Shown piece after piece: positions 28,270-63,176 of a DNA stretch of 64,000 bases. Below the pieces are notes generated by a model. The model did no database searches and was not told the DNA's origin. It was given only the letters and a program-made list of their open reading frames with translations. The stretch comes from Nitrososphaerota archaeon (GTDB lineage Archaea > Thermoproteota > EX4484-205 > JAAOZP01). A program made the translations under genes and the position numbers. The stretch lies in NCBI GenBank assembly GCA_011605725.1, contig JAAOZP010000003.1, positions 9,032 to 73,031 of the forward strand, in the 5' to 3' direction. How positions within the stretch are numbered: position 1 is the first letter of the stretch; each line of letters starts with the position of its first letter.

Positions 28270-28571
28270 AATGTAATAGTTGTTGAGACAATTGCTTATA
28301 AAATTTTCTCAGTCATAGAGAAATACGATATTAGCATCTGAAAGCCCGCAATATGGTTAAAAGGCCACTCTTAAACCAGAAATCGAATTTTGAGGAAAAG
28401 ATAGGCAGAATCAGGGTAGCGCGCGATTTTCTCTTAAATCCGAGAGACATGATGTGGCAAATCGACTTAACCGAAAAGTTCTTTTTGTTCACCTGAAACT
28501 ACTTGAACAGCTTGGAGTGTCGTCGTTACTTGCTTTAGCGCGCTCTACGGATTATCCCTCGGAATATTGCT

Positions 28572-28700
28572 TCAGCAGAAGACGCATCTCAGATTACAGC
28601 CAACGCAGTCAGCCGTCGCTGTACCCCCGTACCATCTGCCTCCCTCTGAACCTGTAGTACTTCCCCACACCCTCTTTCTCCACCATTCTTCTCGTCGCCT
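28572..28700 (-). pseudogene. 5' fragment of a QueE-like radical SAM gene, ending in a stop immediately after the CxxxCxxC motif.
   Basis: The C-terminal ~35 aa of the 81-aa ORF read …TTGSEGGRWYGGTATADCVGCNLRCVFC*. This matches the QueE N-terminal pattern (QGEG … f-v-R … GCNLRCxxC). No continuation exists in any frame downstream. Confidence 0.4.
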
Positions 28701-28840
28701 CAGCGAGAGCAACCTGGTCGTAACCCCTCTCCACAGGTAAACCTTGAGAATGGGCGCCATATAAACACCATGCTTGCAAACCCCCTGCCGGCTTATGATG
28801 CTTATTGCAACATTCATTGTAGAAGAGTAGAAATGCTATT

Positions 28841-29260
28841 CTAAACCTTAACGCCCCACGTGTTTCTAACCCTGTTCAGCAGCTTCTCCACAGCATCCTG
28901 GCTCCTCAGACTGTTCAAGCCTGCTCTGACGCTAACGTTAAGATCCTTGACAGGGATTTTACCTGTCTCCCACTTATCCTCGCTTAACACGAACAGTGGC
29001 TTGAACAGTATCCTGTAGGGGTATATGGCTCTTCCAACAACAGCCTCGTCGCGCCAGAGAATACTCTCCTCCATAGCTTTACCCTCGACGGATGCGAGGC
29101 CAACAATGCCGCGGACAGGGCTCGTAACGTAGAGGAAAAGCAGGTCTCCGCTAGCAACTTTTTCCCAAGTTTTCTTAAGCCTCTTGTTAACGCCCCACTT
29201 CCCTTTCTCCAGAGAAGTCTTCAGGTTGAGCGAAGACCCGGTTGCAACCCAAACATTCAT
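28841..29260 (-). CDS. EVE (PUA-like) domain protein, a predicted modified-base reader.
   Basis: …KGKWGVNKRLKKTWEKVASGDLLFLYVTSPVRGIVGLASVEGKA…YPYRILFKP… fits the EVE consensus (w-G … GDlvffY … givGiaev … R-i-f). Confidence 0.55.
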   Translation of the reverse strand: MNVWVATGSSLNLKTSLEKGKWGVNKRLKKTWEKVASGDLLFLYVTSPVRGIVGLASVEGKAMEESILWRDEAVVGRAIYPYRILFKPLFVLSEDKWETGKIPVKDLNVSVRAGLNSLRSQDAVEKLLNRVRNTWGVKV

Positions 29261-29453
29261 AAGCCTATTTACAATGCTTCCAAGATATAAAAAGCTTGAG
29301 TCTTAAGAAGCTTGTGTACACTATAAGTGCTGGCGCTATTCGAAACGGGTCCAGAATAATGGAGAAATGATTCTTGGCATCTCGCTGGCTGAAGGGTCGT
29401 TCGGAATACTGCTAGAAATGATCATCTTCACTACAAAACCAGAAAAACATGCT

Positions 29454-30305
29454 TCAAACATTGTTTGCTATTTCCCTTAGCTTTTCTCCAACAACTTTGA
29501 GGAAATCTTCAAAATCCCTTTGAGGAAGCTCTATTAATAGCCTTCTTTCGAAAGGGTCTTCAAGAAATCCCTCTACTATTTCCAATCCTTTTCTATTCCT
29601 CTCAAGGTTGCTTCTATACTTCCTGTAATAGAGCGATGCTCTTACTTTCTCAAGAATTTCTTTAGCTAAGTCCTCTATTTTGTAACCGTGTTTTGAGAGC
29701 ATGAATAAATCATAGAAGTCTCTGAGTTTTTGAGCTCTCCTCGTCAGTATAGCTCTTACTTTTTCACACAGGATTTCTCTTTCGTCGTAAGCCATTATTT
29801 GAAGAGGCTTATAGAAGTCTATGAATTCTTCGAAATATGCTTTTTCATCTGTTGATAATTTAGCCCCGTCCAACAAGGTTTTCACAGTGATTTTCTTTAT
29901 CGGGAAAAGCAATTTCTCTATGAAGTTTACTTGAATCTTTATCAGCTCCGAGTTCTTCCAGAGCTTGAACGTCACCATTCTACCTCCACCACCAAACTCG
30001 ATGAAATTCCTGTTTTTAAGCTCGGCTTCAAACCTAAGGCCTAATTTCTCTGAAACTGTTTTCAAAAAAGAGGCGAAATCCTTTATCTCAGCTAAGAGCT
30101 TTCTCCTCAACTTTTTCTCCCCTAAACCGGCCCACATTTCCTGCTCTCTCCATGTAAAGTCTAGGTCAACGCTAAACCTGTAGTAGCCGAAGTAACATTT
30201 AGTTAAACAGCTACCTCCCTTGAAAAGGTATTTATTGAAGAGGGGTGAGGAGCAGAAATCTTTAAGCACTCTATGCAGTATTATGTCTGATTCTATTAAG
30301 CTCAC
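29454..30305 (-). CDS. AbiEii/DUF1814-family nucleotidyltransferase (type IV TA / abortive-infection toxin).
   Basis: FKGGSCLTKCYFGYYRFSVDLDFTW matches the AbiEii motif (GGTAL…RFSEDiDf). Confidence 0.65.
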   Translation of the reverse strand: MSLIESDIILHRVLKDFCSSPLFNKYLFKGGSCLTKCYFGYYRFSVDLDFTWREQEMWAGLGEKKLRRKLLAEIKDFASFLKTVSEKLGLRFEAELKNRNFIEFGGGGRMVTFKLWKNSELIKIQVNFIEKLLFPIKKITVKTLLDGAKLSTDEKAYFEEFIDFYKPLQIMAYDEREILCEKVRAILTRRAQKLRDFYDLFMLSKHGYKIEDLAKEILEKVRASLYYRKYRSNLERNRKGLEIVEGFLEDPFERRLLIELPQRDFEDFLKVVGEKLREIANNV

Positions 30306-30344
30306 ATCCTTGATACCCGATTTTCAATTATGAATGAAACAAAC

Positions 30345-30974
30345 TCAGATAAGCCGGGCATTCCTAATAACCCTTTCAACACTCTTTGGATACAGTTTAA
30401 GATACGCTTCGATTTTCCTTCTATCCAGGTTCCTTGCATATTCGCGTATTGTTGAAATTATTTTCTCCTCCGGTAAACCACGGTATCTGAAGACATAAGT
30501 AAAGTCTAGAAGAGTCTTCTCCGCGTCGGAGAACCTAATGCCGTCTCTATCTACCACCCCTAGGCTGAGAAGCCTGCTCTTAAGCTTAAGAAACTTCACC
30601 TTTTCACCGGCTATCTCTATTTCCTTAGGCCGATAGATCTCATTATTCACCACGAAGATCGTCCTGAAAAACTCATGAGTAAGACCATTAAGCCTGAGCG
30701 CAGTGTAGAGCCCGAAGTACCAGTTAAGCCCAAGCCTGTTCAACCCTAGAGAGATAACCCTATAAGGGTCTACGGATTTCTTGAGTTTAAACTCCTCGAT
30801 AGTCTTCACATAATATAGGCCTCTCAGGATCCTGATGAAATACCCATAGGATATCATGAAATTAATCGTATTAACATGGTTCACCCGGAACCTTTTACAG
30901 TTTTTCTCCACCTCCTCTCTAGTAATAACGCTGCCTCCGAACCTCGATAAAAGGAACTTCGTTACAATTCTCAT
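30345..30974 (-). CDS. AbiEi-like antitoxin / transcriptional regulator partner of AbiEii.
   Basis: Sits immediately upstream of AbiEii on the same strand with a 40-bp gap. Length 209 aa with a predicted N-terminal wHTH-like region. Assignment is by gene context. Confidence 0.4.
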   Translation of the reverse strand: MRIVTKFLLSRFGGSVITREEVEKNCKRFRVNHVNTINFMISYGYFIRILRGLYYVKTIEEFKLKKSVDPYRVISLGLNRLGLNWYFGLYTALRLNGLTHEFFRTIFVVNNEIYRPKEIEIAGEKVKFLKLKSRLLSLGVVDRDGIRFSDAEKTLLDFTYVFRYRGLPEEKIISTIREYARNLDRRKIEAYLKLYPKSVERVIRNARLI

Positions 30975-31266: not shown

Positions 31267-32244
31267 ATGAATAAGACGCCAGAGTATTTTCTAGTCTCCG
31301 TGTCCACTCGAGAAAACCTTGAACTGTGCGAAAAGCATGCTTTAGCCGGTTTCACAAACAGCGTCAACGGGCTCTGGACGTTCTTAGACATTGACGAGGG
31401 GGATTTCATATCTTTCCTTTACGGCGCAAGAGTGTATAACCTTTACAGGGTCTTAAGGAAAGAGGCTTTCAAGAATGCGGACAGGCTTCCCCCGTGGCCT
31501 CCTGTCACGTTCAAGATGTCGGGCAAAACCTATTACTTTCCCTTCAGGCTGCATCTTGAGCAGGAGAGGGTTTTAAACGAGCCTATGGTGAGGCCTGAAT
31601 TCGCATATGTTGCTGAAAACCTGCTTTTAAGAGGAGGATATAGGAAGACGCATTTCCAGGCGGATACAGTAACCCTGTATAATGTTTCCAACATGGGTTC
31701 TCGTTTCGAAGGTGAAAACGAGCAGCTTCATCTAGGAAAGGAGGTTTTTCAGCCCAAGATCGTTTTTAGAAAAGGGAAGGAGGATTCAGAAAGGTTTCGC
31801 TTCCATGAACTTGTTTTACAGAGCTTGGTTAGAAAGAAGATTAGAGACGGGGCGCTGAGCATGATTCTGGAACACTTTGAAGTAAGCCACCCGCCCGGTG
31901 AGTTCGAGGTTCTGGGGGAAAAGGCGCTGCCAGAGGGGTTCGTAGATATTTTCATTAAAATGAAGCATCCGGAGGGAGGCAATTTATACCTTGTGATTGA
32001 AGTTAAAACAGGTGGAGCAAGCCCTCAGGAAGTGGCTCAACTCGAGTCATACATAAATGAGCTTGGAAGCGAATGTAAAGGGGGAGTCCTAGTGGCGAAA
32101 AGCTTTTCCAAGAGGACAATGGCTGATTGTAAATCTAAGAGGATTCTGCCGGTTAAATACTATTTTAAAAACTTGGATGAGGAAAAAGAGTATGCTTATG
32201 AGGAATTATTGGGTGCCTTACGGTTGGAACCGATGAACCTCTAA
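31267..32244 (+). CDS. PUA-like (EVE/ASCH-type) domain fused to a Mrr-like PD-(D/E)xK nuclease. A putative modification-dependent endonuclease.
   Basis: The N-terminus ([23 protein letters not shown]…[18 protein letters not shown]) is PUA/EVE-like. The C-terminus ([38 protein letters not shown]) carries a D…E-V-K nuclease core. Confidence 0.45.
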
Positions 32245-32704: not shown

Positions 32705-32968
32705 GTGGAAGAAATAGAAGACGTTACAAAGGTTTCTTCAAAGGGTCAGGTCGTGATTCCGAAAGAGATAAGGGAGAGGCTTGGAATTCTTCCTGGAGAA
32801 AAAATCATAGTAATGACTAGGGATGATGAAATAGTTTTGAAGAAGGCGAGAAAGCTACGCTTAGAAGAGTTATCTGAAAAAATAGTCGGCGTCGCTGAAA
32901 GAAACAAGATAGATGCGGAAAAGCTTATAGACGAGGCCATAAAATGGGCAAGATCAAAGCGGTCTTAG
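32705..32968 (+). CDS. vapB: VapB-type antitoxin (AbrB/SpoVT fold).
   Basis: SSKGQVVIPKEIRERLGILPGEKIIVMTRDDEIVLKK. Its end overlaps the start of the downstream PIN gene. Confidence 0.7.
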   Translation: MEEIEDVTKVSSKGQVVIPKEIRERLGILPGEKIIVMTRDDEIVLKKARKLRLEELSEKIVGVAERNKIDAEKLIDEAIKWARSKRS

Positions 32969-33375
32969 ACACGAACATTCTCGTATCGCTTCTGTTTAAA
33001 AAAGGTTTGGCAAAGGAATTCTCCAAGCTAATGGAGAAGGGGAGCGTTGAATTCTACTCTTCAGAAGAAATACTGGGAGAGTTGGCCAGAGTACTGACTT
33101 ACCTGAAAATCGAACAGGTGTTTAAAAAGGCGGGGATAAATAAAACAACAGCATTAGAATCCATAGTAGAAATATTAAAGATAGTGAATCCCAAAGTTAA
33201 GGTTGACGCCGTAAAAAGTGACCCGTTAGATAATAAGGTTTTAGAGTGTGCGCTCGAAGCAGGAGCAAACTACGTAGTTAGTGGGGACAGGCATTTGCTC
33301 GAGTTGAGAAGATTCAGAAAAATAGAAATATTGACAGCAAGAGAATTTTTGGAAGAAACAAGTTCATCCTCATAG
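32944..33375 (+). CDS. vapC: VapC-type PIN-domain toxin.
   Basis: AVLDTNILVSLL… gives the N-terminal acidic PIN residue. DPLDNKVLECALEAGANYVVSGDRHLL is typical of PIN family PF13470. Confidence 0.7.
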   Translation: MGKIKAVLDTNILVSLLFKKGLAKEFSKLMEKGSVEFYSSEEILGELARVLTYLKIEQVFKKAGINKTTALESIVEILKIVNPKVKVDAVKSDPLDNKVLECALEAGANYVVSGDRHLLELRRFRKIEILTAREFLEETSSSS

Positions 33376-33388: not shown

Positions 33389-33982
33389 TCACGTGTTTAA
33401 AGCTCGCGCGCTTGAAACCAGTTTCTCAAGTTTCTTGAAATCTTCCTCCATCTTCCTCCTGATGCTTGGGAACCTCATTCCCGCAGCCGGGTGGAAAGTT
33501 GGAAAACAGGTTACTTGCCCCTTCCTCATAAGCTTCCCATGGCTTTTCGATATGGAGACTTTTTCGTTGGGAAACAATGCTTTAAGGGCAACATTTCCAA
33601 GAACCACGATTAACCTTGGCTTGATGATTTCGATTTGCTCGAGGAAAAACGGTTTGCAGGCTTCAACCTCGTCTTTCACAGGCGGCCTGTTTTTAGGCGT
33701 GTGACACTTAACTACTCCAGTTATAAAGACTTCACTCCTTTCTAGGCCTATTTGGCTCAGAAGCTTTTCAAAAAATTTCCCAGACATTCCTACGAATGGT
33801 TTTCCTTGAGCATCCTCGTTTCTCCCAGGATTCTGCCCAAGAAACATTATCTTCGCGTTAGAAGGGCCTTCTCCAGGAACAGCGTTAACCCTTATCCTCC
33901 AAAGCCTGCATCTTCTACACTCCTTTATTCTTTTTTCAAGCTTAAGCAGTTTCCTATGCTTCTCCATTCTTAATCTTCCCAA
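33389..33982 (-). CDS. udg: Family-4 (thermostable) uracil-DNA glycosylase.
   Basis: PGEGPSNAKIMFLGQNPGRNEDAQGKPFVGMSGKFF is the family-4 UDG signature. CRRCRLW is the Fe-S cysteine cluster region. Confidence 0.8.
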   Translation of the reverse strand: MGRLRMEKHRKLLKLEKRIKECRRCRLWRIRVNAVPGEGPSNAKIMFLGQNPGRNEDAQGKPFVGMSGKFFEKLLSQIGLERSEVFITGVVKCHTPKNRPPVKDEVEACKPFFLEQIEIIKPRLIVVLGNVALKALFPNEKVSISKSHGKLMRKGQVTCFPTFHPAAGMRFPSIRRKMEEDFKKLEKLVSSARALNT

Positions 33983-34177: not shown

Positions 34178-35437
34178 ATGGATGCGAGCAGCGTGCAGCA
34201 GACCGAGCTTAAGCCTTCCCTAGGTCTGTTTGACGCCACTGCCATCAGCATTGGCGCGATTATTGGAGCAGGCATTTTCATCGTTACAGGTATTGCTGCG
34301 GGCTTAGCCGGTTCAGCCCTAGTGGTTTCAATGCTCATAGCAGCAGTAATCGCGTTGTTAACTGCTTTAAGCATAGCGGAGCTCACGGCCTGGCAACCCT
34401 TAGAGGGAAGCATCTATGAATATGCTTACCGATTAATCTCGCCGTTCGCGGGTTTTCTAGCAGGATGGATATGGGTTTTGTCAAACACTTTTGCGGGAGC
34501 AGCTGTCTCACTGGGCTTCGCGTATTACCTTGCGGCGCTAGCTCCAGTTCTGCCTACTAATCTTATTGCAGCAATAGTCTGCCTGGGTTTCACGACGCTG
34601 AACTTCATCGGGATCCGTCAGTCAGCTTTCACCAACAATATTCTCGTCGCTGCAAAACTGCTCATACTGGTGTTCTTCATCGTAACCGGTTTCTGCTTCA
34701 TAAGGGTGGAGAACTTCTCGCGGTTTGAGCCTTTTAAAGCCGGGGTACTCTATGGAGCATTCTACATTTTCTTCGCCTACGGCGGCTTCGCCAGAGTAGC
34801 CGTTGTAGCGGAGGAGGTTAGAAACGCTAGGAAAAATGTTCCAAGAGCAATACTTCTATCCCTAGTAATATCCACGCTGGTTTACATTCTCGTTGGAACC
34901 GTAGCCGTCGGGCTTGCAGGAGCCTCAGGTCTTTCAAGCTCGAAATCGCCGTTGACGGATGCAATAAGCGTGACAGGCAGCACGGCCGCGGTCTACATAG
35001 TTTCCGCCGGAGGGCTTGTCGCAACCGCGAGTGTCCTGCTCACATCAATCCTAGGCGTGTCTCGCATGGTTTATGCGATGGCGAGGAGAAGAGACCTGCC
35101 TCAAGCCATGAGCAAGCTGCACGCTAGATTCGGCACACCATATTACTCCATCTGGATAATTGGTGTTTTAATGACGGTTCTCGCTCTATTCATAGACCTC
35201 AGCAGGATTATCGCCATAAGCACTTTCGCACTGCTTTTCTACTATGCTCTGGCAAACATGTCTGCGTTAAGATTGAGAATTGAGAAACGGCTTTACCCCA
35301 GTGTTATCCCAGTCCTAGGCTTAGCCACCTGCCTAATCCTAATGGTTTTTATCCCGCTTGAAGCATGGATAATGGGTTCTGCAGGGTTAGCAGCAGGCGT
35401 AGCCTTCCACTGGATGAAAAGACGCTTCTCGACATAG
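34178..35437 (+). CDS. APC-superfamily amino acid/polyamine permease.
   Basis: 12-TM protein with an N-terminal pattern typical of amino acid permeases (…FDATAISIGAIIGAGIFIVTG…). Confidence 0.7.
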   Translation: MDASSVQQTELKPSLGLFDATAISIGAIIGAGIFIVTGIAAGLAGSALVVSMLIAAVIALLTALSIAELTAWQPLEGSIYEYAYRLISPFAGFLAGWIWVLSNTFAGAAVSLGFAYYLAALAPVLPTNLIAAIVCLGFTTLNFIGIRQSAFTNNILVAAKLLILVFFIVTGFCFIRVENFSRFEPFKAGVLYGAFYIFFAYGGFARVAVVAEEVRNARKNVPRAILLSLVISTLVYILVGTVAVGLAGASGLSSSKSPLTDAISVTGSTAAVYIVSAGGLVATASVLLTSILGVSRMVYAMARRRDLPQAMSKLHARFGTPYYSIWIIGVLMTVLALFIDLSRIIAISTFALLFYYALANMSALRLRIEKRLYPSVIPVLGLATCLILMVFIPLEAWIMGSAGLAAGVAFHWMKRRFST

Positions 35438-35612
35438 TTGGGGAATGCAGTCTTTCGCCGACACTAGCCCGTATTCATCACTGCCACTATGCTTTCCCTC
35501 TCAGGTTTAAAGACCGATGAAGCTAACCCTACAATCATAGTGGGTAGGCGCGCTAAAGGTTGTTGTCAAGTGAAGAAGTGTTATCGAGGAAAAGCAGCGC
35601 GTTAGCGCGCGC

Positions 35613-35680
35613 GTTGAGACTGTAAAGCCTAGGGAGAAACTGTTAATAGTAATGAGTGAAATCATCGAGGTCATAACCTA
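35613..35680. repeat. Direct repeat copy 1: a 68-bp perfect repeat, with ~25 bp of additional flanking similarity.
   Basis: gttgagactgtaaagcctagggagaaactgttaatagtaatgagtgaaatcatcgaggtcataaccta is identical to the stretch at 37486..37553. Confidence 0.85.
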
Positions 35681-35896
35681 GAAGATTCTTCAAGCGTGCG
35701 AGGTTAGGGAGAACAGGGTTATCTGACCCTATGGGTTCGAGTTCGATGTTACCTGCTGCCTGCCGAAGGAAGCATGGGAGAGTGGAGGCTATGCGTGCTA
35801 GAGTTGAATAATCTGCTTCAAAGAGCGCGCTCTTTATGATTGAGAGCAAATCTCAGCATAGTCAATGAATATTTCCATCTTTAAAACATAGTTGGA

Positions 35897-37192
35897 TCAT
35901 GATTCGAGTAGCCATTTCCACAAGGGTAGGAACCTAATCCTCCTGCCATCATGCTTCTCCACTCCTTCATAGTCCCAAGTGATCACGGTTAGGTCGCTAC
36001 AGTCCAGCTCCTTAGAAGCCTTCACTAGCGCGCTTATTTCCCTCTCCTTCGTATCGAAATCCTCTATATTGTAGCATACTTGTATTAATTGCTTAATCTT
36101 TCCACCGCTCTTTATAATGAAGTCCACCTCCTTATTATTGGAGCTGAAATAGAACAAGTTTTCGTTTGGAGTGAAACCTTTCTTCAAGAGTTCTGAGAAA
36201 ACCAGGTTCTCCATAAGCCTGCTCGTGCTTTCAACTCCATTGACGATGAGCAGGCCATTATCCACCAAGTATATCTTTGGAATAGTCTGCTCCACTTCCT
36301 TATAGGACCTAGAATACTTCCTTAAAGTGCATAAAACTAACGAGTCTGAAAAATACTCAACATAGTTGTAAAGAGTGTTCTTACTAACCTTCATCCCCAA
36401 GGATTTAATATAGTTATAAAACTTATGGATTGAAAAATACGTGGACGACACTAAACTCTTAACCATTAATCTAAGGACTCTTATGTTCTTAACCTTGAAC
36501 CTCTCTATTATGTCCCTATAGATAGTAACCTCAAATATTTCCTTCAAGATCTTTTCCCTTTCATTTTCGAATAGTACTACTTCAGGATAGCTTCCCCTCA
36601 TGTATTTCTGAAGGAGATTCAGAAGCATAGCTTTCTTTAAAGAGGAAAGATATTTTTCCGCTTCGAAGCCCTTTGCTCTCAAGAACTCTTTGAAGTTAAA
36701 AGGATAAATGTAGTAGGGAAGAGTCCTTCCCCTTAGACTTGTCGCGACCTCCATGGATAGAAGCTTGGAGGAAGACCCGCTGACATACACTTGAATTCTC
36801 TCGCTATCTACAACGCTGCGCACAAACCTTTCCCAATAAGGGACGTTCTGAACCTCGTCTAGGAAAAGGTAAACCTTTTGCCTCTTATTTTCGGGGTAAA
36901 TCTCGTAAAAAATATTGAGCATGCTCCTTAAATCCTCTATGGTGCAGCCGATTAGCAAGTCGCTTTCAAGGTTAACGTAAAGTATTCTGCTTTTATCAAT
37001 ATTGTTACGCAGTAATTCCCCTATAACCTGAAACATGAAGAACGTTTTACCTGCTCTCCTCGGCCCAATTATAGATATGGCTCTTCTTATCGGAAGATCA
37101 GCTTCAATCCTAAGGTCTCTTTTCACAAGTTTAGGTAACTCGGATTCTTGGAAATCTTTTATCATTCTTATCCAGGTCTCTCGCGTTACCAT
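35897..37192 (-). CDS. AAA+ ATPase of the COG1373 / AAA_14 plus DUF4143 family, paralog of 26989..28269.
   Basis: Walker A IIGPRRAGKTFFMFQV. Walker B LFLDEVQ. Shares its C-terminal region with the paralog (…KQLIQV…ITW.Y…PLWKWL). Confidence 0.75.
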   Translation of the reverse strand: MVTRETWIRMIKDFQESELPKLVKRDLRIEADLPIRRAISIIGPRRAGKTFFMFQVIGELLRNNIDKSRILYVNLESDLLIGCTIEDLRSMLNIFYEIYPENKRQKVYLFLDEVQNVPYWERFVRSVVDSERIQVYVSGSSSKLLSMEVATSLRGRTLPYYIYPFNFKEFLRAKGFEAEKYLSSLKKAMLLNLLQKYMRGSYPEVVLFENEREKILKEIFEVTIYRDIIERFKVKNIRVLRLMVKSLVSSTYFSIHKFYNYIKSLGMKVSKNTLYNYVEYFSDSLVLCTLRKYSRSYKEVEQTIPKIYLVDNGLLIVNGVESTSRLMENLVFSELLKKGFTPNENLFYFSSNNKEVDFIIKSGGKIKQLIQVCYNIEDFDTKEREISALVKASKELDCSDLTVITWDYEGVEKHDGRRIRFLPLWKWLLES

Positions 37193-37485
37193 CGTATCAT
37201 GTATAGGGAAACTAATTTAAAAAGTTTCCCTCTTTAGAGAACCATCCCATCTATCTCGACGAATCATTCACATATGCCGTCTGAGTGCTTTATTAAATTA
37301 AGTCCTCTGTTTTATGCGTCTTAAGAATCCGTAATTGTTGTACTTCTAGCGCGCTAGTATCCTTCTGGGAGAATTTCCTTCACCCTATCTATGTTCCAGC
37401 CGTCTCTTTTCATCAACACAAAATCACAACCCCTTGTAGCGCGCTAAGAATCTTTAGCTCAGAGCAAGAAACATAAAAAGAAGTC

Positions 37486-37553
37486 GTTGAGACTGTAAAG
37501 CCTAGGGAGAAACTGTTAATAGTAATGAGTGAAATCATCGAGGTCATAACCTA
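37486..37553. repeat. Direct repeat copy 2, identical over 68 bp to 35613..35680.
   Basis: Same 68-mer. The downstream ~25 bp are similar with a 2-bp indel. Confidence 0.85.
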
Positions 37554-37671
37554 ACATTCTTCAAGCGCGCGAGGTTAGAATTATACTCTGCTCCGCGCTC
37601 GCTACAGGCTTTCTAGTAAATACTGCTGCATTAGGATTTCTAGCTATCATGTTCTGTTTCATATTCACCAC

Positions 37672-37929
37672 TCAATAAATTTTCTTCCTGTGCCCCACAT
37701 CTATTAGTATAACTTGTTTATCTTTTTCATTAATCGAGTATATTATCCTATAGTCTCCTACGCGTATTCTCCAGAGACCTGAAAGCTCGCCGCTAAGCTT
37801 AGTCCCTGCATGGGGTTTTTCCATCAGTTCTGATAGAATATCAAATACTCTTTCTTGAACGCTTTTTTCAACATTTTTAAAACTTCTCCTAAACCTATTC
37901 GTAACTATCAGCGAGTATTTAGCTTTCAA
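37672..37929 (-). CDS. relE: RelE/ParE-family toxin.
   Basis: …WRIRVGDYRIIYSINEKDKQVILIDVGHRKKIY is the RelE-family C-terminal signature. Confidence 0.7.
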   Translation of the reverse strand: MKAKYSLIVTNRFRRSFKNVEKSVQERVFDILSELMEKPHAGTKLSGELSGLWRIRVGDYRIIYSINEKDKQVILIDVGHRKKIY

Positions 37930-49905: not shown

Positions 49906-49907
49906 GC

Positions 49908-52856: not shown

Positions 52857-52907
52857 ACGATAATAAGAACCCAGGCAAGCTATTTAAATAGTTAGCCTCA
52901 GTACATT
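52857..52907. promoter_or_regulatory. Bidirectional promoter region with a palindromic TATA-like element (TATTTAAATA, 52881..52890).
   Basis: A 51-bp divergent intergenic region lies between the DUF499 ATPase gene (minus strand) and the DUF1156 methyltransferase gene (plus strand). The palindromic A/T box sits ~24 bp and ~17 bp from the two start codons. Confidence 0.35.
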
Positions 52908-55718: not shown

Positions 55719-55752
55719 GGCATGGAACATAGATGTATAAGCTTGATTAGCA

Positions 55753-56277
55753 TTAGGAATGGATGTCGGAAATTTCCACGGCTTCTATTCTAGACTCTCC
55801 CAGGATGCCCTGTCTCCAAGAGGCTAGGTATTGCTCCAGCTTCTCAAGCCTTACAAGGATCTTCTCAGCCTGCTCCATCTCCCTGCGGCCGTTTCCCTCT
55901 AAGAGCCCTACAGCCTTGGATCCGTGTCTCAAGATGCCTCTGAGCAGCCTGTCATGGTCAACTGATTCACGTTGCCTCTCCACCAGGTGCATGTTTTCTT
56001 GAACGAATTTTCTGAGCGGGGCGTTCATGCTCGTAAGCCTTTTTTCAAGCGCCATCCTTACTTGATTTGTTGAAGGCCTTCTTTCTAAATCATGGTCTAG
56101 TGAGGCGAAATATACGCCAGCCTTATAGATGTGCCTAGCGATAAGCTCATGAGCGCCTTCAACCATGTTTCTCCTGAAGGATTCAAGTCTTCTTTCCTGC
56201 TCGGCGTCAATAATCCTTCCCCTGCTTCTGGCTGAGACCAGTGCTTGCTCAATGCTCTTCCTACAGCTGCACGTCAT
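55753..56277 (-). CDS. Small accessory protein co-transcribed with the PLD-SNF2 helicase. Function unknown.
   Basis: 174-aa ORF whose start overlaps the helicase stop by 4 nt (ATGA), suggesting translational coupling. Confidence 0.4.
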   Translation of the reverse strand: MTCSCRKSIEQALVSARSRGRIIDAEQERRLESFRRNMVEGAHELIARHIYKAGVYFASLDHDLERRPSTNQVRMALEKRLTSMNAPLRKFVQENMHLVERQRESVDHDRLLRGILRHGSKAVGLLEGNGRREMEQAEKILVRLEKLEQYLASWRQGILGESRIEAVEISDIHS

Positions 56278-59200
56278 GCTGATTCCTCCATGCTTAACAG
56301 TTCATCCACTAATTGGATTACCTTTTCTCTGTCGCTTAAAACTTCGGGAACAGCGTCTCCTTCCCTTATTACTCGGAGAGACCCTAATCCATCATGCTCC
56401 TTTATTAGATAGATGCTTTTCGAGGCTTTTAAACCCTTGTTCCCCGTCTTGGAGATTATATTGTCGCAGAGCCATTGAACTATGGGGTGTGCAGGAGTCA
56501 ACACGTTAGGCCTCCCAACTTCGAGACTGGCATTGTTCCATCTTCTCAATTCCTCGGGCAGCTGCTTTTCATCGATCTCCAAACCATTGTCTTTAACGCA
56601 CGCCTTTAATCCCAGTGCTTTCGCTGCTTTTAGTGTGAAGTCTGCTATTCTGTTTATAACGTCTTCATCCGCGGTCTTAGCGCCCTCCCATGACGCTCCG
56701 GTAATAGTTCCCGCGATCCTGGCTGCGCGTTCTTTAACCTCGTCGACTTTCTGTAATGTTTCTGAGACTATCATCCTTATTTTCTCAGTTGTCTCTCCCT
56801 CATCCAGCGCTTTACGCAAACCCTCGCTGATTATTTCTTGAGCCGGACCCACTACTAACCCGTAGATCTCTCTCCTCTGGAAGAGAACACGGTACATCTC
56901 TGCCTCTATGCTTTCAGGGTACCAGATATTCTTCACGAGCACAACGCTGGCTTTCTGCCCCAGCCTATCTGCCCTACCGATCCTCTGCTCAACCTTAGCC
57001 GGGTTCCACGGCATATCAACGTTAATTACCACGTTTGCTGCTTGAAGGTTAAGGCCTTCGCGCGCAGCGTCGCTGCAAACCAGAACCCTTACATTTCCAT
57101 CGGTGAGTTCCCGACTGACCTCGTCCTTGTCTACTGGAACATAAGTGTCTTTCTCCCTATCGTAGACCATGCCGCCTGCACCAGTATAGATGGCGATCTC
57201 CGATTTTGAAAGATACTTGCTTTCTCTTGCAAGGAATCTTGAAACGGCATCAACAGTATCAGTATACTTGCTGAAAATCAGAATCTTATGGCCTTTAGAA
57301 AGCAGGTCGTCTACTACTGAAACCACCTTGCGGAGTTTCGGGTCACCTCTGGAGAGGATGTCCGGAGAATAGTCTCCAAGCTCATTCTCCAACTCTCTTA
57401 GCTTCTGAATCTCTCGCCGTATTAGTTCACCAGCCCCGCTGGCAAGAAGCTCCTGCATGGCCTCTATAATATCCTCCTCATCCCCCTCCCACTCCGGTTC
57501 TTCTATAAACCTGGAGGCTGCAGCGAGGAGCGCGTCTCTATCACCTTTCAAGAGGGCTTCTAAAAATTCCCTCCTATTCTTTACGGTCAGGTATGCTGCC
57601 GTGAAACTGCTTACAAACCTCTGATGGTAGATGCATTTAACAAACCCTATTATCGACTTACTTTCTCCTTTCAGTATTCTCTCATATTGCCCATATTCGT
57701 TTCTAAGATAACTGTCCAGTTTCCTTAGCAACTCCATGTGTTTAGCATCTAGTTCAACCGGCTCCTCCGCAATATGTCTCTCGGGAAAAGAGTATCCTAA
57801 CTCCTTCAGTTTGCTCCTCGTGTTCCGAACCATGAACCATTGCACGGGGTTAAGGGCGAGAAGCAGCTTCCTCAACCGTTCGATCCCATGGTGTTGTACT
57901 ACGTCCACGATTTTTTCCAAACCCTCTCCGGACAGTATGCGTTCAGTTATTGTTTCAGCCGTGTGCTGATCGCCGAAAATCTTTTCAAGAATCTCTTGAA
58001 GCTCTTTCCTGTCAACATATTGACCAGCTATCCACGATGCTAATCTTAGGCAGAATTCCCATTCCGACTTGGTGATGGTAGCCGGGTCGGAGGACAGTGC
58101 TCTGAAATATCTTTGAAAATCCTCCTCGTGAACCCAGGGTCCGCTTAGCCCAAGTATCTGAAGCAGATCCATGGCTTCAGCCTCGTAGAGCTGAACCGGC
58201 GTCGCAGTGACGAGCAGTATGTGAGGAGCTGTAACACTGAGCTCCGCAAGCAGGTCGTTAAGCAGGGTTGGCTCTATCTTCCCAGGGCTCCTCTTCTTCC
58301 TCGCATGGTGGGCTTCGTCAACCACTATTAGGTCGAAGAACTTCCCGGTGTTAAGAAGCTCTGGAGGCCTGTTTCTAGATCCTCGAGCATAATGCCAGGA
58401 GGCTATCATTAAATCAATACCCTGCTTGTCAAAAGGGTTTTCACCGTGCCCTATGGGTATCAACCTGCCTTCAACATCAACGAATTCTTTCCTAAAGGTG
58501 TCGAGCAACCAGAAGCGGAGGCCGAAGTGGCTCCACATCTCCTCCATCCATTGTCTCGCAACATTCTTAGGGGACAGTATTAGGATTCTTTGTGCCCGAC
58601 CCAGCGACACTAGCCTCTTGATTATGGCTCCCGCCTCAATCGTTTTCCCCAGTCCAACCTCGTCGGCAAGCAACACTCTGTGAGGATACCTGGACAGGGC
58701 GAAGTCGACGGCGTAAGCCTGATACGGGTGGAGAGCCACGGGCCCGAGACCCAGGTGGGCGAATTGCCTTATGTTCCCGATTTCTCTAACGAGTCTAGCA
58801 GCCGGGACCAATAATTGGCAGGCAGCAAAATTAGGTATACCCACCCCTTCTATAACCGTTTCGTCTTCCAAAGGGTCTGTTTCAGGAGGCTTTGCACCAT
58901 AATATTTTTCCCTAAGCTTTTTCTCAACCACCTCAGGCAGGGGAAACACGAAATAATCGGGATGCTTATCCTCCCAGAGAACATCAAACCTCTCTGTATA
59001 CCTCTTAATATACTCCTCGTGCCCAGGTTTCCAAGACATGTGAACAGTCAGGTTTTCACCGTTTATCTCGTATGCAGCCCGGGTTTCATTCGCGCTTCCA
59101 GCGGCGGCGATAGTGCAGCCATCAAAATCCCTGAATATCATCAGTTTTTCATGAAAAATGCCATTGCCCAGCCCAAGGAAAGTCTTCTTCGGCAGCGCTA

Positions 59201-59600
59201 CCCTGACTTCAAGCGTGCCGTTCACCAGCATCCAGGCTAAGGCTTCAATCCTTCTCCGAGCTATTATATCCTCAGCCTTTTCAAGTCCAGCAGCTATTCT
59301 CTCCCCGATCTCGCGGATCAGTTCCTCAGCCCTTTCCCTACTCATCCTGTATGCCTCTACGAGATCCGGCTCCACATCGTGAAGCCCAACTATCAGCTTC
59401 ATCCGCCCATTGTTCCTCAGGAGACCAGCTATGCCGGCGGCCACAACAATAAGGGAGTCTGCGCTGAAAAAGCCCGACAGCCTCTCGTAATAGCAACATC
59501 TTTTAAGAACAGGAATGTAAAAGCGCTGGGCTATAATATTTCCATCACCCTCATACATTATCTCGAGACTGGAGCCGAGTTCCTCATAGAGGCATCCCAT
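56274..59600 (-). CDS. SNF2-family helicase with an N-terminal PLD-type (HKD) nuclease domain.
   Basis: HKD-like GNGIFHEKLMIFRD. Helicase motif I LLADEVGLGKTIEAG. Motif II DLIVVDEAHHARK. C-terminal helicase domain (…VLVCSDAAREGLNLQ…, arginine motif QRIGRADRLGQ). Confidence 0.75.
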   Translation of the reverse strand: MGCLYEELGSSLEIMYEGDGNIIAQRFYIPVLKRCCYYERLSGFFSADSLIVVAAGIAGLLRNNGRMKLIVGLHDVEPDLVEAYRMSRERAEELIREIGERIAAGLEKAEDIIARRRIEALAWMLVNGTLEVRVALPKKTFLGLGNGIFHEKLMIFRDFDGCTIAAAGSANETRAAYEINGENLTVHMSWKPGHEEYIKRYTERFDVLWEDKHPDYFVFPLPEVVEKKLREKYYGAKPPETDPLEDETVIEGVGIPNFAACQLLVPAARLVREIGNIRQFAHLGLGPVALHPYQAYAVDFALSRYPHRVLLADEVGLGKTIEAGAIIKRLVSLGRAQRILILSPKNVARQWMEEMWSHFGLRFWLLDTFRKEFVDVEGRLIPIGHGENPFDKQGIDLMIASWHYARGSRNRPPELLNTGKFFDLIVVDEAHHARKKRSPGKIEPTLLNDLLAELSVTAPHILLVTATPVQLYEAEAMDLLQILGLSGPWVHEEDFQRYFRALSSDPATITKSEWEFCLRLASWIAGQYVDRKELQEILEKIFGDQHTAETITERILSGEGLEKIVDVVQHHGIERLRKLLLALNPVQWFMVRNTRSKLKELGYSFPERHIAEEPVELDAKHMELLRKLDSYLRNEYGQYERILKGESKSIIGFVKCIYHQRFVSSFTAAYLTVKNRREFLEALLKGDRDALLAAASRFIEEPEWEGDEEDIIEAMQELLASGAGELIRREIQKLRELENELGDYSPDILSRGDPKLRKVVSVVDDLLSKGHKILIFSKYTDTVDAVSRFLARESKYLSKSEIAIYTGAGGMVYDREKDTYVPVDKDEVSRELTDGNVRVLVCSDAAREGLNLQAANVVINVDMPWNPAKVEQRIGRADRLGQKASVVLVKNIWYPESIEAEMYRVLFQRREIYGLVVGPAQEIISEGLRKALDEGETTEKIRMIVSETLQKVDEVKERAARIAGTITGASWEGAKTADEDVINRIADFTLKAAKALGLKACVKDNGLEIDEKQLPEELRRWNNASLEVGRPNVLTPAHPIVQWLCDNIISKTGNKGLKASKSIYLIKEHDGLGSLRVIREGDAVPEVLSDREKVIQLVDELLSMEESA

Positions 59601-59965
59601 TAGTTATCTTAGAAACCATGCAGCGGTATTTAAAAATTGATTCGTATTTTCATCCACATTAAAACTGTAGGCATGCTGCTTAAATAGCTCTTTATTCGCA
59701 CTTGACGAAAAATAACAATGAGTGAAAAGCTTGCCGAGCTCAGCATGGTACGTGGTTAAACAAGTTCTTACGCGCGTAGGGATGAAGGAATCAGAGGTAT
59801 TGCAAAATATGTGAAGAACTTTATGTTCTCCAAAAGGAATTTGAGTGTAAAGATTATTCTTTCAGGTAGCGTGCGCTAAAAACTGGTTTAAACTTTTTAA
59901 ATACGGCTAATTCTTATATATTGCAACTGGAAAGTGTTTTATTAATAAGCGTGGCACGCGCTAAA

Positions 59966-59973
59966 CTTATATT
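59966..59973 (+). promoter_or_regulatory. TATA-like box (CTTATATT) upstream of the 59998 ORF, preceded by a GCGCGC-type element.
   Basis: gtggcaCGCGCtaaaCTTATATTgcctg… sits ~25 bp ahead of ATG 59998. Confidence 0.35.
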
Positions 59974-59997
59974 GCCTGATTGGTTTAAAATATTGGA

Positions 59998-60921
59998 ATG
60001 AGGGAAGAACGGCTGTATGATCCGGTGGGGGAATGGCTTATCAGGGAGAAGGGTTGTCAGCGGGATAAATATTCTCAAGGTTATTTGAAGGACGCGCAGA
60101 TCGGAAATTTTAGATTCGACGTACTTGGTATAAGGTATGAGGTAGTACATGAATGCATAAATCATCTGGATTTTCACGGCTATATCGTCGAGGTGAAGGG
60201 TGATGAAACCGGTCTGGATGAACTCATCGGTAAAGTAATGATGGTTAAGGAAGGTATTAAAGGTCACTCTATAATAGAGCACTTTAGTGGATTGGATACC
60301 GTTGAATTATACATAGCCTACCCGACAGAACAGGTGAAAACCGAAATACTCAGAATATGTGAAAGAGAGGGAATCGGCATCCTAAGGCTTCAAATCGTTG
60401 ACGAGAAAACCGTGCACGTATATAACGTAGGCGTAAAACCTGAACTGATTTATATCTGTGGAATATCGCATGAAGCTCAAAAATCCCCTGGAAACTTTGA
60501 AAGTGCTATGAATGAATTCGGTTATCTGAGGCAGATGTTTCAGAGGCCCTCGGACATGTTTGAAGACCTCATTAGGCCAAGTAAAGAAGAATACAACGCT
60601 CAACTGAAACTAAAAGAACTTCAAGGCTATGTTAGGAACAAGGAGAGCGAAGAGGCGCTGGATTTCCTCATCGAAAAAATCCAAGAGAAACTTCCACAAG
60701 TCAATATCACAAGTGCTGGAGGAAAGATAGCGTTCATACTACATGGAACCGAGTTGCTTAACATCGTCCCTACTACTAAGTATTTTTACGTGCAGTTAGG
60801 CGAAGGAGAAAGATATAGAATTCTATCTAGAAATGAGATAATAGGATTCGAAGGTAGTGTTGATAATCTGATAGACTCTGTAATAATACCATACATAAAT
60901 GATAAGATTAAAAAGAGATAA
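59998..60921 (+). CDS. Hypothetical protein in an AT-rich patch, possibly a PD-(D/E)xK nuclease-like protein.
   Basis: RFDVLGIRYE…HGYIVEVKG gives a D…E-V-K arrangement near the N-terminus. 307 aa. Confidence 0.35.
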   Translation: MREERLYDPVGEWLIREKGCQRDKYSQGYLKDAQIGNFRFDVLGIRYEVVHECINHLDFHGYIVEVKGDETGLDELIGKVMMVKEGIKGHSIIEHFSGLDTVELYIAYPTEQVKTEILRICEREGIGILRLQIVDEKTVHVYNVGVKPELIYICGISHEAQKSPGNFESAMNEFGYLRQMFQRPSDMFEDLIRPSKEEYNAQLKLKELQGYVRNKESEEALDFLIEKIQEKLPQVNITSAGGKIAFILHGTELLNIVPTTKYFYVQLGEGERYRILSRNEIIGFEGSVDNLIDSVIIPYINDKIKKR

Positions 60922-61033
60922 AAATTAGGACTCATAGTAGTGTGCACTAATAGAATAAGCAAGAGGAAAATTTACCCTAAAAATGGAAGGCCTAGTAGTT
61001 TAGGAACCAACATGACTATAAAGTGTTCGAAGT

Positions 61034-61660
61034 TCAGATAGGACTAAGCTTCATGAATAACTCTCTGTGCGATTTTATGACATTTTTAATTTCGTTTGCC
61101 AGCTTCTTTTCTTTTCCCTCTTTAAAGCATAACCACTGCCCATATAGCCAAAGGTACTCATCCATCTGTTTGTAGGTTATTGACAAACCAGATTCTGATA
61201 TTAACCTATCTATGCCGGATTTGAATTCACGATATCCCACTAGTTTTTCTCCTAACAGCTTGCTTAACGCATACTTTGCAAAAGAGTCATATATAGGGAA
61301 TTTATGTGGTTGGTGAAAGTGGCAATATTTGCTCGTAAAGACTAACCCCAGTCTTTTCCCTCCTTGGACGTAAAGCTTAGAGATGTCCTCAACTATATCA
61401 ACCGGGTCCTCTTTTTCCAACCTGTCATCTATGTTAGCGTGAACAAGCACCTCAGCAACCTTCTGCACATCCATTTTAAGGTTGCAATTGTACAACTTAT
61501 CCAAAAGAACAACTTTATACGCTACATCCCGCACATTATCATTTTTATTGTACGTTTTAAATTCACGGTAAAGCAATTCATCTATCCGTCCCCAAGTTAG
61601 TACCTTATCAAGTATCTGCTTTGCCACGCTAAAAATTTCGCTCGTGAGCATCTTTATCAT
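61034..61660 (-). CDS. Hypothetical protein in an AT-rich patch.
   Basis: 208-aa ORF. No motif recognised. Confidence 0.4.
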   Translation of the reverse strand: MIKMLTSEIFSVAKQILDKVLTWGRIDELLYREFKTYNKNDNVRDVAYKVVLLDKLYNCNLKMDVQKVAEVLVHANIDDRLEKEDPVDIVEDISKLYVQGGKRLGLVFTSKYCHFHQPHKFPIYDSFAKYALSKLLGEKLVGYREFKSGIDRLISESGLSITYKQMDEYLWLYGQWLCFKEGKEKKLANEIKNVIKSHRELFMKLSPI

Positions 61661-62379
61661 TACAACTTCGCCAATCCTAATAAGTTTTTCGCTGGTAGGG
61701 CACGCTAAAGACGTTTATGTTAGAGTATTGTTTCTACTCTTCAACTATGAATCCTTCTTCAATCAGGATTCTTCTGCAATCCTTGCAGAGCGACTTCAAC
61801 CATTTGGCAAGTAGTCTTCTCTCCTGTTCCGCAGACTTTATTTTAACGCTGAAGATCCTGTCGAACCTCCTCTGCACTCTTTGCACACGAGGTCATACTC
61901 TGAGGAGCGCATTCCTTGAGATAGAAGGTAGGGATAATTTAAGCGTTTGTTGTCAAAAACAACAACATGTTGCACCCAGCGTCATAAGCCTTTTTAACAC
62001 GGTTTGAATTAGCACGCGCTTCTCCTCCTAGCTTAAGGAAGGTTAGCGTAGCTAAACTTAAGAGTGTGACAAAAGGTTCAAAATTTTGGTAGACGTGGTT
62101 AAAGATAAGAATACATTGCGTTTATGCAGATTTGCTTAATTTCAAAAATGAAAAAGAAGCTTGAAACAGTGTTTAAGGAAGCGCGCGCGCTCTGACGCTC
62201 TAAAATAGCAATGAGTGGTAAATGGATGTAATCGCAGCGTGCTTTCGCTGACTTTAAAAATCAGGCTGTTCACGACCCTTTTTCAGAGACCTCTGATAGG
62301 CTTGAATTGGATAACGGAAGTACGGTATGATTTATTCTTAAGGCAAAGCTTAAAAGTAGTATGTAAGGCTTATAGTTGG

Positions 62380-62607
62380 ATGAGAAAAATTATTCAGGTG
62401 AGGGTTTACAAGGGGGAGAAATACTACGTTGCTGAGTGTGTTGACCTGCCTGTTGTCAGCCAGGGGAAAACGCTGGACGAGGCTGTGGAGAACATAAGGG
62501 AAGCGATAAGCCTCCATCTTGAAGGAGAGGATTTAAGCGAATGGGACATACTTCCAGATTTTTCCATACTGATTAGCATGGAAGTCCCTCCTCATGTCGA
62601 GGCTTAA
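62380..62607 (+). CDS. hicB: HicB-like antitoxin (UPF0150 / RNase H-like fold).
   Basis: MRKIIQVRVYKGEKYYVAECVDLPVVSQGKTLDEAVENIREAISLHLE is the HicB N-domain pattern. The ORF-track extension upstream to 62215 is probably not translated. Confidence 0.6.
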   Translation: MRKIIQVRVYKGEKYYVAECVDLPVVSQGKTLDEAVENIREAISLHLEGEDLSEWDILPDFSILISMEVPPHVEA

Positions 62608-62836
62608 AGTATTAAGCGGGAAAGACGTAGTTAAAATACTTTCAAGGTTTGGATTCATACCAGTGTCTCAAAAAGGAAGCCATGTGAAGCTAAGGAGAAC
62701 CCTGCCTAGCGGGACGATACAGTCTTTAACAATTCCTCTACACGAAGAGTTAGACAAGGGAACTTTAAAGGCAATCTATAGGCAAGCCTTAAGATTCATC
62801 CCTGAAGAGGAGTTGAAGCCTTATTTTTACGATTAA
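62594..62836 (+). CDS. hicA: HicA-like mRNA interferase toxin.
   Basis: LSGKDVVKILSRFGFIPVSQKGSHVKL is the HicA (YcfA-like) motif with its catalytic His. It overlaps the hicB stop. Confidence 0.65.
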   Translation: MSRLKVLSGKDVVKILSRFGFIPVSQKGSHVKLRRTLPSGTIQSLTIPLHEELDKGTLKAIYRQALRFIPEEELKPYFYD

Positions 62837-63176
62837 TTATGAAGCGTTGAAATAGGTCTTCGCTTAAATCAACAAAAAAGGAGAGCTTCAAAACACGATT
62901 CTAGAATCGGGCTACGAGTTACGAGCCTCAGAAAACTATTCCTAAGGAGGAAGCTTAGCGACTAAGGTTCTCAGCTGCAGCAACCATGTAGTGCGCGCTA
63001 GTATAGTTGTTGTGTGAAGAATAACTCGTGGAATGCCTTTAGCGCACGTGAAGTTTTTAAACGGGTTTTCTAAGACTGCTGCATTCTTTTGCATGCTTAC
63101 TTTCACTCAACCCTCTCCCTCAAGCGTTTACTTTCCTAAGATTCCTGCATGGTTGGAAAACCTTTATCTTAAGCCT

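Follow-up and report, generated by a model that had tools for sequence, protein, structure and literature searches.

Between about 27 and 63 kb of the 64-kb window analysed here, a stretch of archaeal contig JAAOZP010000003.1 whose own numbering we use for all coordinates, lie an AbiE gene pair, several toxin-antitoxin pairs, two DUF4143 ATPases, proteins resembling readers of modified DNA, a methyltransferase (MTase)-HerA-NurA cassette, a TcmP/radical SAM module, a GmrSD enzyme, and a five-gene system related to Hma, with orphan open reading frames (ORFs) and housekeeping genes interspersed among them. We conclude that this interval is very probably a chromosomal defence/toxin-antitoxin island in an uncultured archaeon of the Bathyarchaeia from a hot spring. 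The island would be a mosaic whose cassettes were acquired separately, and each of them most likely acts on its own. What carries this conclusion is directly observed: the family assignments of the genes, their excess density, the patchwork of their composition, and the finding that near-identical strains have, lack, or replace individual cassettes. Every biochemical activity of the modules is a prediction from sequence. Most new immune systems have been found by way of defence islands, and the Bathyarchaeia are abundant, uncultured, and, to our knowledge, almost unexplored for defence.

ORFs were called mechanically, and the credible ones were searched against the Pfam, PADLOC, and NCBIfam profiles. 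By our own classification, about 24 of the 34 genes at 26.99-62.84 kb are defence or toxin-antitoxin genes, compared with 3 of 39 in 46 kb of flanking DNA, which comprises the remainder of the window together with 10 kb to its left and 9 kb to its right (Fisher P = 2e-8). Composition is uneven as well. The GC content of third codon positions (GC3) spans 0.29-0.65 across genes inside the island, with strong differences between neighbouring modules, and the AT-rich orphan genes that a preliminary description of this DNA had pointed out do stand apart (GC 34-40%, GC3 0.29-0.44, against 0.44-0.65 elsewhere). That description had proposed a defence/accessory island of ~35 kb with at least ten independent immunity modules. 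The island is borne out by profile matches, by the gene-density excess, and by strain variation, and one or another of the three profile collections supports nearly all of the domain calls. The families behind the count of ten hold, although the count itself includes unvalidated candidates (PDC-S01, PDC-M41A, and HerA-NurA) and several of the modules have decayed. Likewise, the proposed limits of 28400-62900 hold for the core, whereas the edges are fuzzy, with one DUF4143 ATPase starting outside them and variable DNA at 2.0-17.5 and 23.6-24.8 kb. The window is 100% identical to a 90.9-kb metagenome contig of the Joint Genome Institute (JGI), Ga0311297_1014352. Its inorganic pyrophosphatase gene, ppa (25083-25625), has 75-94% identity to the ppa of 80 Bathyarchaeia/Bathyarchaeota metagenome-assembled genomes (MAGs), many of whose isolate names (DRTY, JZ, Kamchatka) we take to indicate hot springs.

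The AbiE pair consists of an AbiEi antitoxin/regulator (30345-30974, minus strand), matched over its full length by PADLOC (2.5e-83) with no match in Pfam, and an AbiEii nucleotidyltransferase toxin (PF08843; 29454-30305, minus strand; Pfam 5.4e-31, PADLOC 2.2e-94). AbiEi lies upstream on the same strand across a gap of 39 nucleotides (nt), and the strength of these matches confirms the pair as it was first described. By family, it would serve as a toxin-antitoxin, or abortive infection, module. It shares with AbiE, a type IV toxin-antitoxin/abortive infection system, the gene pair with strong full-length profiles, but differs in that the toxin gene alone is here a presence/absence polymorphism among strains. 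The four further pairs that had been named are also supported, and by their families vapBC, relBE, and hicBA would be addiction or stress modules. The vapBC pair (32705-33375, plus strand) encodes an AbrB/MazE-type antitoxin of 87 amino acids (aa) and a PIN_3 toxin of 143 aa (Pfam 3.9e-10 and 1.1e-16). The relBE-type pair (37672-38152, minus strand) joins a RelE/ParE toxin of 85 aa (37672-37929; ParE_toxin 2.7e-11) to an overlapping 77-aa putative RelB-like antitoxin that has no family match and was assigned by position. Next to it, a PIN_3 toxin (38211-38626), recognized by a C-terminal match, and its 68-aa upstream partner occupy 38211-38814 on the minus strand; the toxin is frameshifted by two single-T insertions relative to an intact 137-aa allele on strain contig L095 (contigs of other strains, all metagenomic, carry L-numbers, and close alleles have 97-99.5% nucleotide identity). 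At the right end, hicBA (62380-62836, plus strand) comprises a HicB of ~75 aa with a weak match (HicB_lk 4.9e-4) and a HicA of 80 aa (HicA_toxin 2.6e-15). The degenerate vapBC remnant reported from outside the island is real as well: the MazE-type antitoxin and PIN toxin at ~22930-23570 (plus strand) are both frameshifted, and the alleles on contig L003, which Pfam annotates, are intact (79-aa MazE, 105-aa PIN).

The two DUF4143 ATPases, both on the minus strand, are confirmed by Pfam (AAA_14 and DUF4143) and by the PADLOC candidate profile PDC-S01. The first (26989-28269; Pfam 8.7e-33 and 6.2e-16, PADLOC 1.2e-88) lies 130 bp outside the start proposed for the island; the second (35897-37192; PADLOC 3e-99) is a paralogue with 41.5% identity. 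They would count as candidate systems only. The second ATPase sits in a cassette at 35603-37578 (minus strand) with a direct repeat at both ends (35612-35707 and 37485-37578; 96 bp, 69 nt identical), the sole internal repeat in the window. A 68-aa ORF runs with its 3' end into the left copy, and the right copy is a frameshifted fragment of that ORF. The housekeeping genes said to be interspersed here are confirmed by Pfam as a uracil-DNA glycosylase (UDG; 33389-33982, minus strand; UDG 3e-35) and an amino-acid permease (34178-35437, plus strand; AA_permease_2 5e-52).

Two proteins had been described as EVE/PUA readers of modified DNA. The first, a stand-alone EVE (PUA-like) protein of 139 aa (28841-29260, minus strand), is borderline in Pfam (EVE, E 1.3e-4, 22.4 bits against a gathering score of 23). 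It is backed by NCBIfam (PRK00809, 3e-10) and by 29% identity to the EVE half of a 270-aa fusion protein on L095 that passes the Pfam cut-off. The second, a 325-aa protein (31267-32244, plus strand) whose sole family signal is a weak one to NucS_C (6e-4), was recognized through its structure. When its AlphaFold2 model (pLDDT 86, pTM 0.86) was searched with Foldseek, the whole protein matched MspJI (1e-6, the best hit) and AspBHI, the C-terminal domain matched EndoMS/NucS, and the N-terminal ~150 residues matched YTH domains (target-normalised TM-score 0.5-0.6). Because of these matches, we assign it a PUA/YTH-like N-terminal reader followed by a PD-(D/E)xK domain, and D227...E245-x-K247 is invariant across its family. 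On the strength of the model, it is a putative modification-dependent (type IV-like) nuclease. Like MspJI and AspBHI, it combines a putative N-terminal modified-base reader fold with a C-terminal PD-(D/E)xK domain. Unlike them, it has a reader closer to YTH/EVE than to SRA, shows no similarity to them in sequence, and belongs to a family unusually conserved across phyla. That family comprises 1218 homologue clusters with 57-72% identity, drawn from both archaea and bacteria and including Archaeoglobus, Thermococcus, Culexarchaeia, Fervidobacterium, and Desulfofervidus. Such identity is unusually high for distant archaeal and bacterial thermophiles and suggests frequent horizontal transfer under strong constraint. 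The 150-aa ORF at 47112-47564 (minus strand), in a segment (47107-47580) bracketed by two copies of GCGCGCTA, is 38% and 43% identical to the C-terminal halves of the 270-aa L095 protein, whose N-terminal half is the EVE domain, and of a 317-aa protein on L114 that has no Pfam match. It is thus a stand-alone version of a domain associated with EVE that presumably acts as an effector.

The cassette at 39145-42863 (plus strand), bounded at 39145 and 42856 by copies of a GC palindrome discussed below, encodes an N6_N4 MTase (39168-40070; Pfam 7e-36, PADLOC MTase_II 9e-64), HerA (DUF87; 40110-41657; Pfam 2e-14), and, after 10 nt, NurA (41668-42858; Pfam 4.5e-5, above the gathering score), all on the plus strand. 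Among 80 related loci, all those with enough upstream sequence have HerA immediately upstream of NurA, and a homologous MTase adjoins the pair in 7 of the 80, upstream in some and downstream in others. An obligate three-gene unit is thus rejected, as only HerA-NurA is constant; the three domain calls and the HerA-NurA pair stand, while the link to the MTase is recurrent but optional. An argument can be made that HerA-NurA here is the cell's machinery for resecting double-strand breaks and not defence, with the MTase an unrelated orphan. HerA and NurA are known to form an end-resection complex in archaea (PMC12977600), more distant relatives of the present pair, at 33-38% identity, and also some closer to it lie among genes that look like housekeeping genes, judged from neighbour sequences, and so small a share of the loci includes the MTase. 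Yet, near-identical strains lack the cassette or carry a truncated HerA, and the same slot holds a type I restriction-modification (R-M) system and nucleases in other strains. Nor was a Mre11/Rad50 operon, or either of its genes, seen nearby, the neighbours of the pair being the MTase and an orphan ORF. The NurA-like family is tiny (38 homologue clusters, thermophilic archaea only), and the MTase recurs beside the pair in several lineages. Weighing these points, we give the repair function a substantial chance, somewhat short of even. If the cassette does serve in defence, the MTase and HerA-NurA may form a second R-M-like system. To its right, an AT-rich orphan ORF of 224 aa (43013-43687, plus strand), represented by a 195-aa version on L096, lies inside a 933-bp indel (42858-43790). 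There follows the radical SAM/TcmP module, which holds up as described: TcmP (43795-44724, minus strand; TIGR04474 4e-25, 89 bits against a cut-off of 53; PADLOC PDC-M41A 4e-19), an SPL-like radical SAM protein in the same direction (44731-45840, minus strand; SPL 3.9e-13), and a second radical SAM protein divergent from this pair (45926-46915, plus strand; Radical_SAM 8e-19). It, too, would be a candidate system only.

The GmrSD-family type IV restriction enzyme (DUF262 and DUF1524; 47637-49373, plus strand; GC 35%) has both domains in one protein and above their cut-offs, as had been claimed (GmrSD_N 5.8e-25, GmrSD_C 4.6e-5; PADLOC HEC-05 4e-45). On L105 (16907-18635) it is split into ORFs of 108 and 490 aa and is probably inactivated. 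Together with the YTH/PUA-PD-(D/E)xK nuclease and the EVE proteins, the enzyme would recognise and cut modified invader DNA. Adjoining it is a five-gene Hma, or type-2-like BREX-related, system that occupies 49426-59600 on both strands in three transcription units. The genes encode a 159-aa protein assigned to DUF7680 through its homologues (49426-49905, minus strand), a DUF499 ATPase (49908-52856, minus strand; Pfam 5e-46, PADLOC HmaC 1.5e-86), a DUF1156 N6-methyltransferase (52908-55718, plus strand; Pfam 1.8e-14, PADLOC HmaB 2e-79), a 174-aa protein (55753-56277, minus strand), and, beside the latter, a PLD-SNF2 helicase (56274-59600, minus strand; PADLOC HmaA/DrmD/PLD_Helicase ~1e-55 to 1e-65, with SNF2 and Helicase_C matches). 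The DUF499/DUF1156/SNF2 system of the preliminary description is therefore supported by Pfam and by the Hma profiles of PADLOC. The helicase has a PLDc_2 domain at residues 126-209 (27.5 bits against a cut-off of 27; NCBIfam phospholipD_antiphage 1e-97), and, owing to this N-terminal PLD domain, we group the window copy with "type 2". The set recurs in a Thermoproteota MAG (L199-L201) with different flanks, and for this reason we regard its five genes as one unit.

Hma has experimental support, and its locus is an insertion hotspot for GmrSD-type genes (PMC11232893); it has since been reclassified as a DUF499-centred BREX-related (BR) system (PMC12839542). The system in the window shares with Hma and type-2 BR systems the DUF499 ATPase, the DUF1156 N6-methyltransferase, the HKD/PLD-SNF2 helicase, and the adjoining GmrSD gene. 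In type-2 BR systems, however, a DUF3780 gene is found in 98% of taxa (PMC11232893, PMC12839542), while none was detected in this locus even at E <= 10; here, the DUF7680 protein follows DUF499 and the 174-aa protein follows the helicase, both of them kept in the second lineage. The system differs further in its three transcription units and in scores far below the equivalog cut-offs for the NCBIfam anti-phage DUF499, DUF1156, and phospholipase D models. The AlphaFold2 model of the DUF7680 protein (pLDDT 90) has four strands and five helices, as in the published description of DUF3780, with which it was compared by description only. The DUF499/DUF1156/PLD-SNF2 proteins would act like an R-M system, methylating self DNA and degrading foreign DNA.

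Comparison of strains reveals that this inventory changes one cassette at a time. A 150-kb contig from another sample is collinear with the window from 15 to 59.8 kb at 97-99% identity, and among contigs that are 97-99.5% identical there are at least seven differences at the level of cassettes. The AbiEii segment (29405-30292, 888 bp) is missing from L002 and L202, which have CGCGCG in its place and keep AbiEi. Contig L203 diverges exactly at 35602/35603, where a small gene, read as a DUF433-like antitoxin, replaces the cassette of the second DUF4143 ATPase. Six contigs diverge at 39010. In L095 and L098, a PDC-S11 nuclease, the EVE fusion, a PDC-S05-like protein, YgjP, and a type I R-M system replace MTase-HerA-NurA; in L097, where that cassette is replaced as well, 39010 is connected to the second radical SAM gene. 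L112 has a truncated HerA and lacks the 933-bp segment bearing the 224-aa ORF. In L105 and L106, Bles03, RNase_H_2, a Cas4-like nuclease, and a helicase replace 59771-61731; L105 additionally lacks the hicA region (62543-63038), and L012 and L013 have other genes left of 61727. The more distant L113 (88-94% identity) carries the same modules in a different order. Related genomes thus do not share one gene order through the island, in which modules are present, absent, or replaced from strain to strain.

All of these data are metagenome contigs, and many short contigs end near the junctions, so chimeric joins at short repeats could in principle have produced the strain differences. This is hardly credible. 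The allele lacking AbiEii occurs both in JGI 3300005573 and in ENA ERZ27247226, which come from independent samples and different assemblers, and the alternative at 39010 is found in six contigs. In addition, the 10-12-bp palindrome repeated at the junctions is far below the k-mer size implied by "k141" contig names, and the alternative alleles carry intact, different genes. A second possibility is that one integrated mobile element (a provirus, an integrative plasmid, or an integrative and conjugative element) brought all of the modules together, as patchy composition and many accessory genes might suggest. We consider this very improbable. There are no integrase, tRNA, replication, or virion genes and no Rfam match, strains vary cassette by cassette and not all-or-none, and GC3 differs strongly between neighbouring modules. 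Scans of the window for Rfam families, CRISPR-like arrays, and tandem repeats found none.

The mosaic island resembles bacterial and archaeal defence islands in its dense clustering of immunity and toxin-antitoxin modules that are unrelated to one another, in the orphans scattered among them, in its patchy composition, and in its turnover between strains. It differs in having no mobile-element genes in view, a GC palindrome at module boundaries, and a host from the little-studied Bathyarchaeia. Several observations weigh against the interpretation of this interval as a defence island. Association with mobile elements, a usual trait of such islands, is not found: Pfam detected neither integrase nor transposase in the window or its flanks, and the window contains no tRNA gene. 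Several modules are pseudogenes, and several of the "systems" are PADLOC candidates only. Variation also extends beyond the interval. L003 lacks a 15.4-kb block (2008-17471), and 8-10 kb left of the window, comparison of L193/L196 (1-2062) with L192 shows AbiEii, a 235-aa ORF, and a DUF4143 fragment in place of most of a cellulase gene, with the junction within a palindrome copy. Finally, synteny around ppa, flank genes included, is lost in all 80 other species, so that island and fluid genome are inseparable at that level.

This last point bears on a third alternative, namely that there is no discrete island because fluidity and an abundance of toxin-antitoxin and defence genes characterise the whole genome, of which the interval is a typical sample. 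Within 10 kb of ppa in the 80 other species, only the permease recurs (~23 loci, in other orientation), and ppa and the permease are the only genes that recur together. The 15.4-kb indel in a left flank that otherwise looks like housekeeping DNA, the defence swap further left, and an ABC-type ATPase at 958-1974 with AriA/GajA-like matches point the same way. Since almost nothing near ppa is conserved, the species comparison cannot delimit the island; the synteny test suggested in the preliminary description thus revealed a variable region among strains but set no boundaries among species. Nevertheless, we regard a uniformly fluid genome as improbable given the scarcity of defence and toxin-antitoxin genes in the 46-kb flanks (3 of 39, against ~24 of 34) and a GC-rich hexamer, GCGCGC, eight times denser at 18.8-63.2 kb than in the flanks. 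A defence island with cassette-wise turnover is the reading that we retain.

That hexamer forms the core of the palindrome, TAGCGCGC(GC)TA, with the core octamer GCRCGCTA. The window holds 26 copies compared with 2.35 expected, a number reached in none of the shuffles; 24 of them are intergenic, all but one lie beyond 19.6 kb, and the palindrome is absent from sister species. Examples (19658-63000) stand at 26854, 37347, 37437, 39003, 39145, 42856, 47107, 47573, 59867, 61700, and 62993. GCGCGC itself occurs 36 times (30 intergenic) against ~7.5 expected in the window. Per 10 kb, its number is 8 at 18.8-63.2 kb, ~1 in the flanks, and 0.9 across 1.19 Mb of other Bathyarchaeia species. Copies of the palindrome are placed between modules, on promoter sides and also between convergent genes, and never inside operons. 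They bracket the 150-aa ORF, the MTase-HerA-NurA cassette, and the PDC-S11 gene of L095, each in turn. Seven junctions between alleles coincide exactly with a copy. One is at 39003-39010 (plus strand), where the six contigs diverge immediately 3' of the copy GCACGCTA, as judged by blastn end points. The others are the start of similarity to L113 at 39145, the left end of the 224-aa indel at 42857, the join to truncated HerA in L112, the join to truncated cellulase in L193/L196, the left end of the second DUF4143 cassette at 35603, and the AbiEii segment, where alleles lacking the gene read GG-CGCGCG-CTA and the window reads GG-[888 bp]-CTA. Seven of ~24 junctions corresponds to a binomial P of ~2e-4 at an assumed chance of 5.5% per junction. 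In a cruder test, proximity of junctions to the palindrome (<= 40 bp) did not differ significantly from that of random intergenic positions (P ~0.1), and no extended consensus was found around the 10-12 bp.

The palindrome invites comparison with integron cassette arrays, including archaeal integrons (PMC9668308), which likewise consist of single-gene cassettes with palindromic sites between them that are gained and lost among relatives. An integron is rejected, because there is no integrase, the site is too short (10-12 bp against 55-140-bp attC), and cassettes lie on both strands with no common promoter; no recombinase domain, IntI included, was found in the window or in 19 kb of flanks. A promoter element is made less plausible by the several copies between convergent genes, and an operator is possible. 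Alternatively, defence cassettes could be inserted, excised, and exchanged at the palindrome, a dedicated site, by a trans-acting enzyme not encoded nearby, either a recombinase or a nuclease cutting the GCGCGC core. This proposal rests on the excess of copies, their intergenic placement, their location in the variable stretch, their absence from sister species, and the seven exact junctions, among them AbiEii replacing the central CGCGCG and the motif-ended segments that abut truncated HerA (L112) or cellulase (L193, L196). We hold it as tentative and on balance doubtful. If it is correct, cassette turnover would use the palindrome as a preferred break or insertion point, and the locus would represent an integron-like platform for cassettes, of a type not described before. 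Such a recombination site would also explain how archaeal islands are assembled without visible mobile-element genes. An 8-bp inverted repeat (AATACTGC / GCAGTATT) at 29405-29412 and 30275-30282 lies at or near the ends of the AbiEii segment; as a general feature of cassettes it is rejected, the pattern not being enriched elsewhere in the window.

The island is a familiar kind of object, and its interest comes from its lineage, its variant systems, and the palindrome at its boundaries. The locus shows, strain by strain, how cassettes turn over in a natural hot-spring population, and it provides a five-gene variant of the Hma/BREX-related systems in which DUF7680 and a 174-aa partner stand in place of DUF3780. 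It also provides a very widespread and highly conserved family of thermophile nucleases, with a YTH/PUA-like reader, that resembles type IV restriction in appearance. MTase-HerA-NurA, TcmP-radical SAM, and the EVE-associated 150-aa domain are offered as candidate modules.

Dense islands invite the expectation that uncharacterised neighbours take part in defence, and the preliminary description extended it to the orphan ORFs. The 150-aa ORF supports this view by its homology to the EVE-fusion domain, as do the 159- and 174-aa proteins, which travel with the DUF499 system; the 224-, 307-, and 208-aa ORFs do no more than sit in swap slots. The latter two (59998-60921, plus strand, and 61034-61660, minus strand) occupy the slot at 59771-61731, and the 208-aa protein is on no other contig examined. 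The 224-, 150-, 307-, and 208-aa ORFs have no match in Pfam, NCBIfam, or PADLOC even at E <= 10 and no sequence match in the Protein Data Bank (PDB).

Some smaller features concern the edges of the island. Two very large genes that follow hicBA (546 and 2354 aa; window 63033-64000, L011 10440-19141) have no family match and are 96% identical in a strain that differs in the neighbouring slot, and they probably mark where the variable region ends on the right. An 81-aa ORF within 28331-28817 ends in CVGCNLRCVFC, which we take for the beginning of a radical SAM cluster motif, and may be a gene fragment; part of this region matches L097 1661-1788. On L202 (619-904), the segment 61728-62010 stands in inverted orientation next to the EVE side, to which it is joined, and a 33-nt inverted repeat between the two sites (28812-28844 / 61720-61752) persists in the window. 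Together, these three features suggest past rearrangement between the ends of the island. The island UDG is of the family-4 type, and another UDG (L199 11648-12313) lies ~3 kb from the same Hma variant in the Thermoproteota MAG, which may be coincidence or a link to defence.

Further left, the block missing from L003 (2008-17471) contains a 560-aa ORF, an AsnC-type helix-turn-helix protein, DUF6785, a 1476-aa M28-peptidase/FtsX protein, an OPT transporter, GH130, and a 786-aa ORF, with one palindrome copy 126 bp from its left junction. Ahead of this block (340-1974), a PqqD-like ORF of 189 aa is followed by the AAA_15/AAA_21 ATPase at 958-1974, whose moderate PADLOC matches (mad3, AriA, AbiLi, and GajA, ~1e-16) make it a possible additional defence gene outside the island. 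L192 (1-301), about 10 kb beyond the left end of the window, carries an intein-containing gene for the RNA ligase RtcB.

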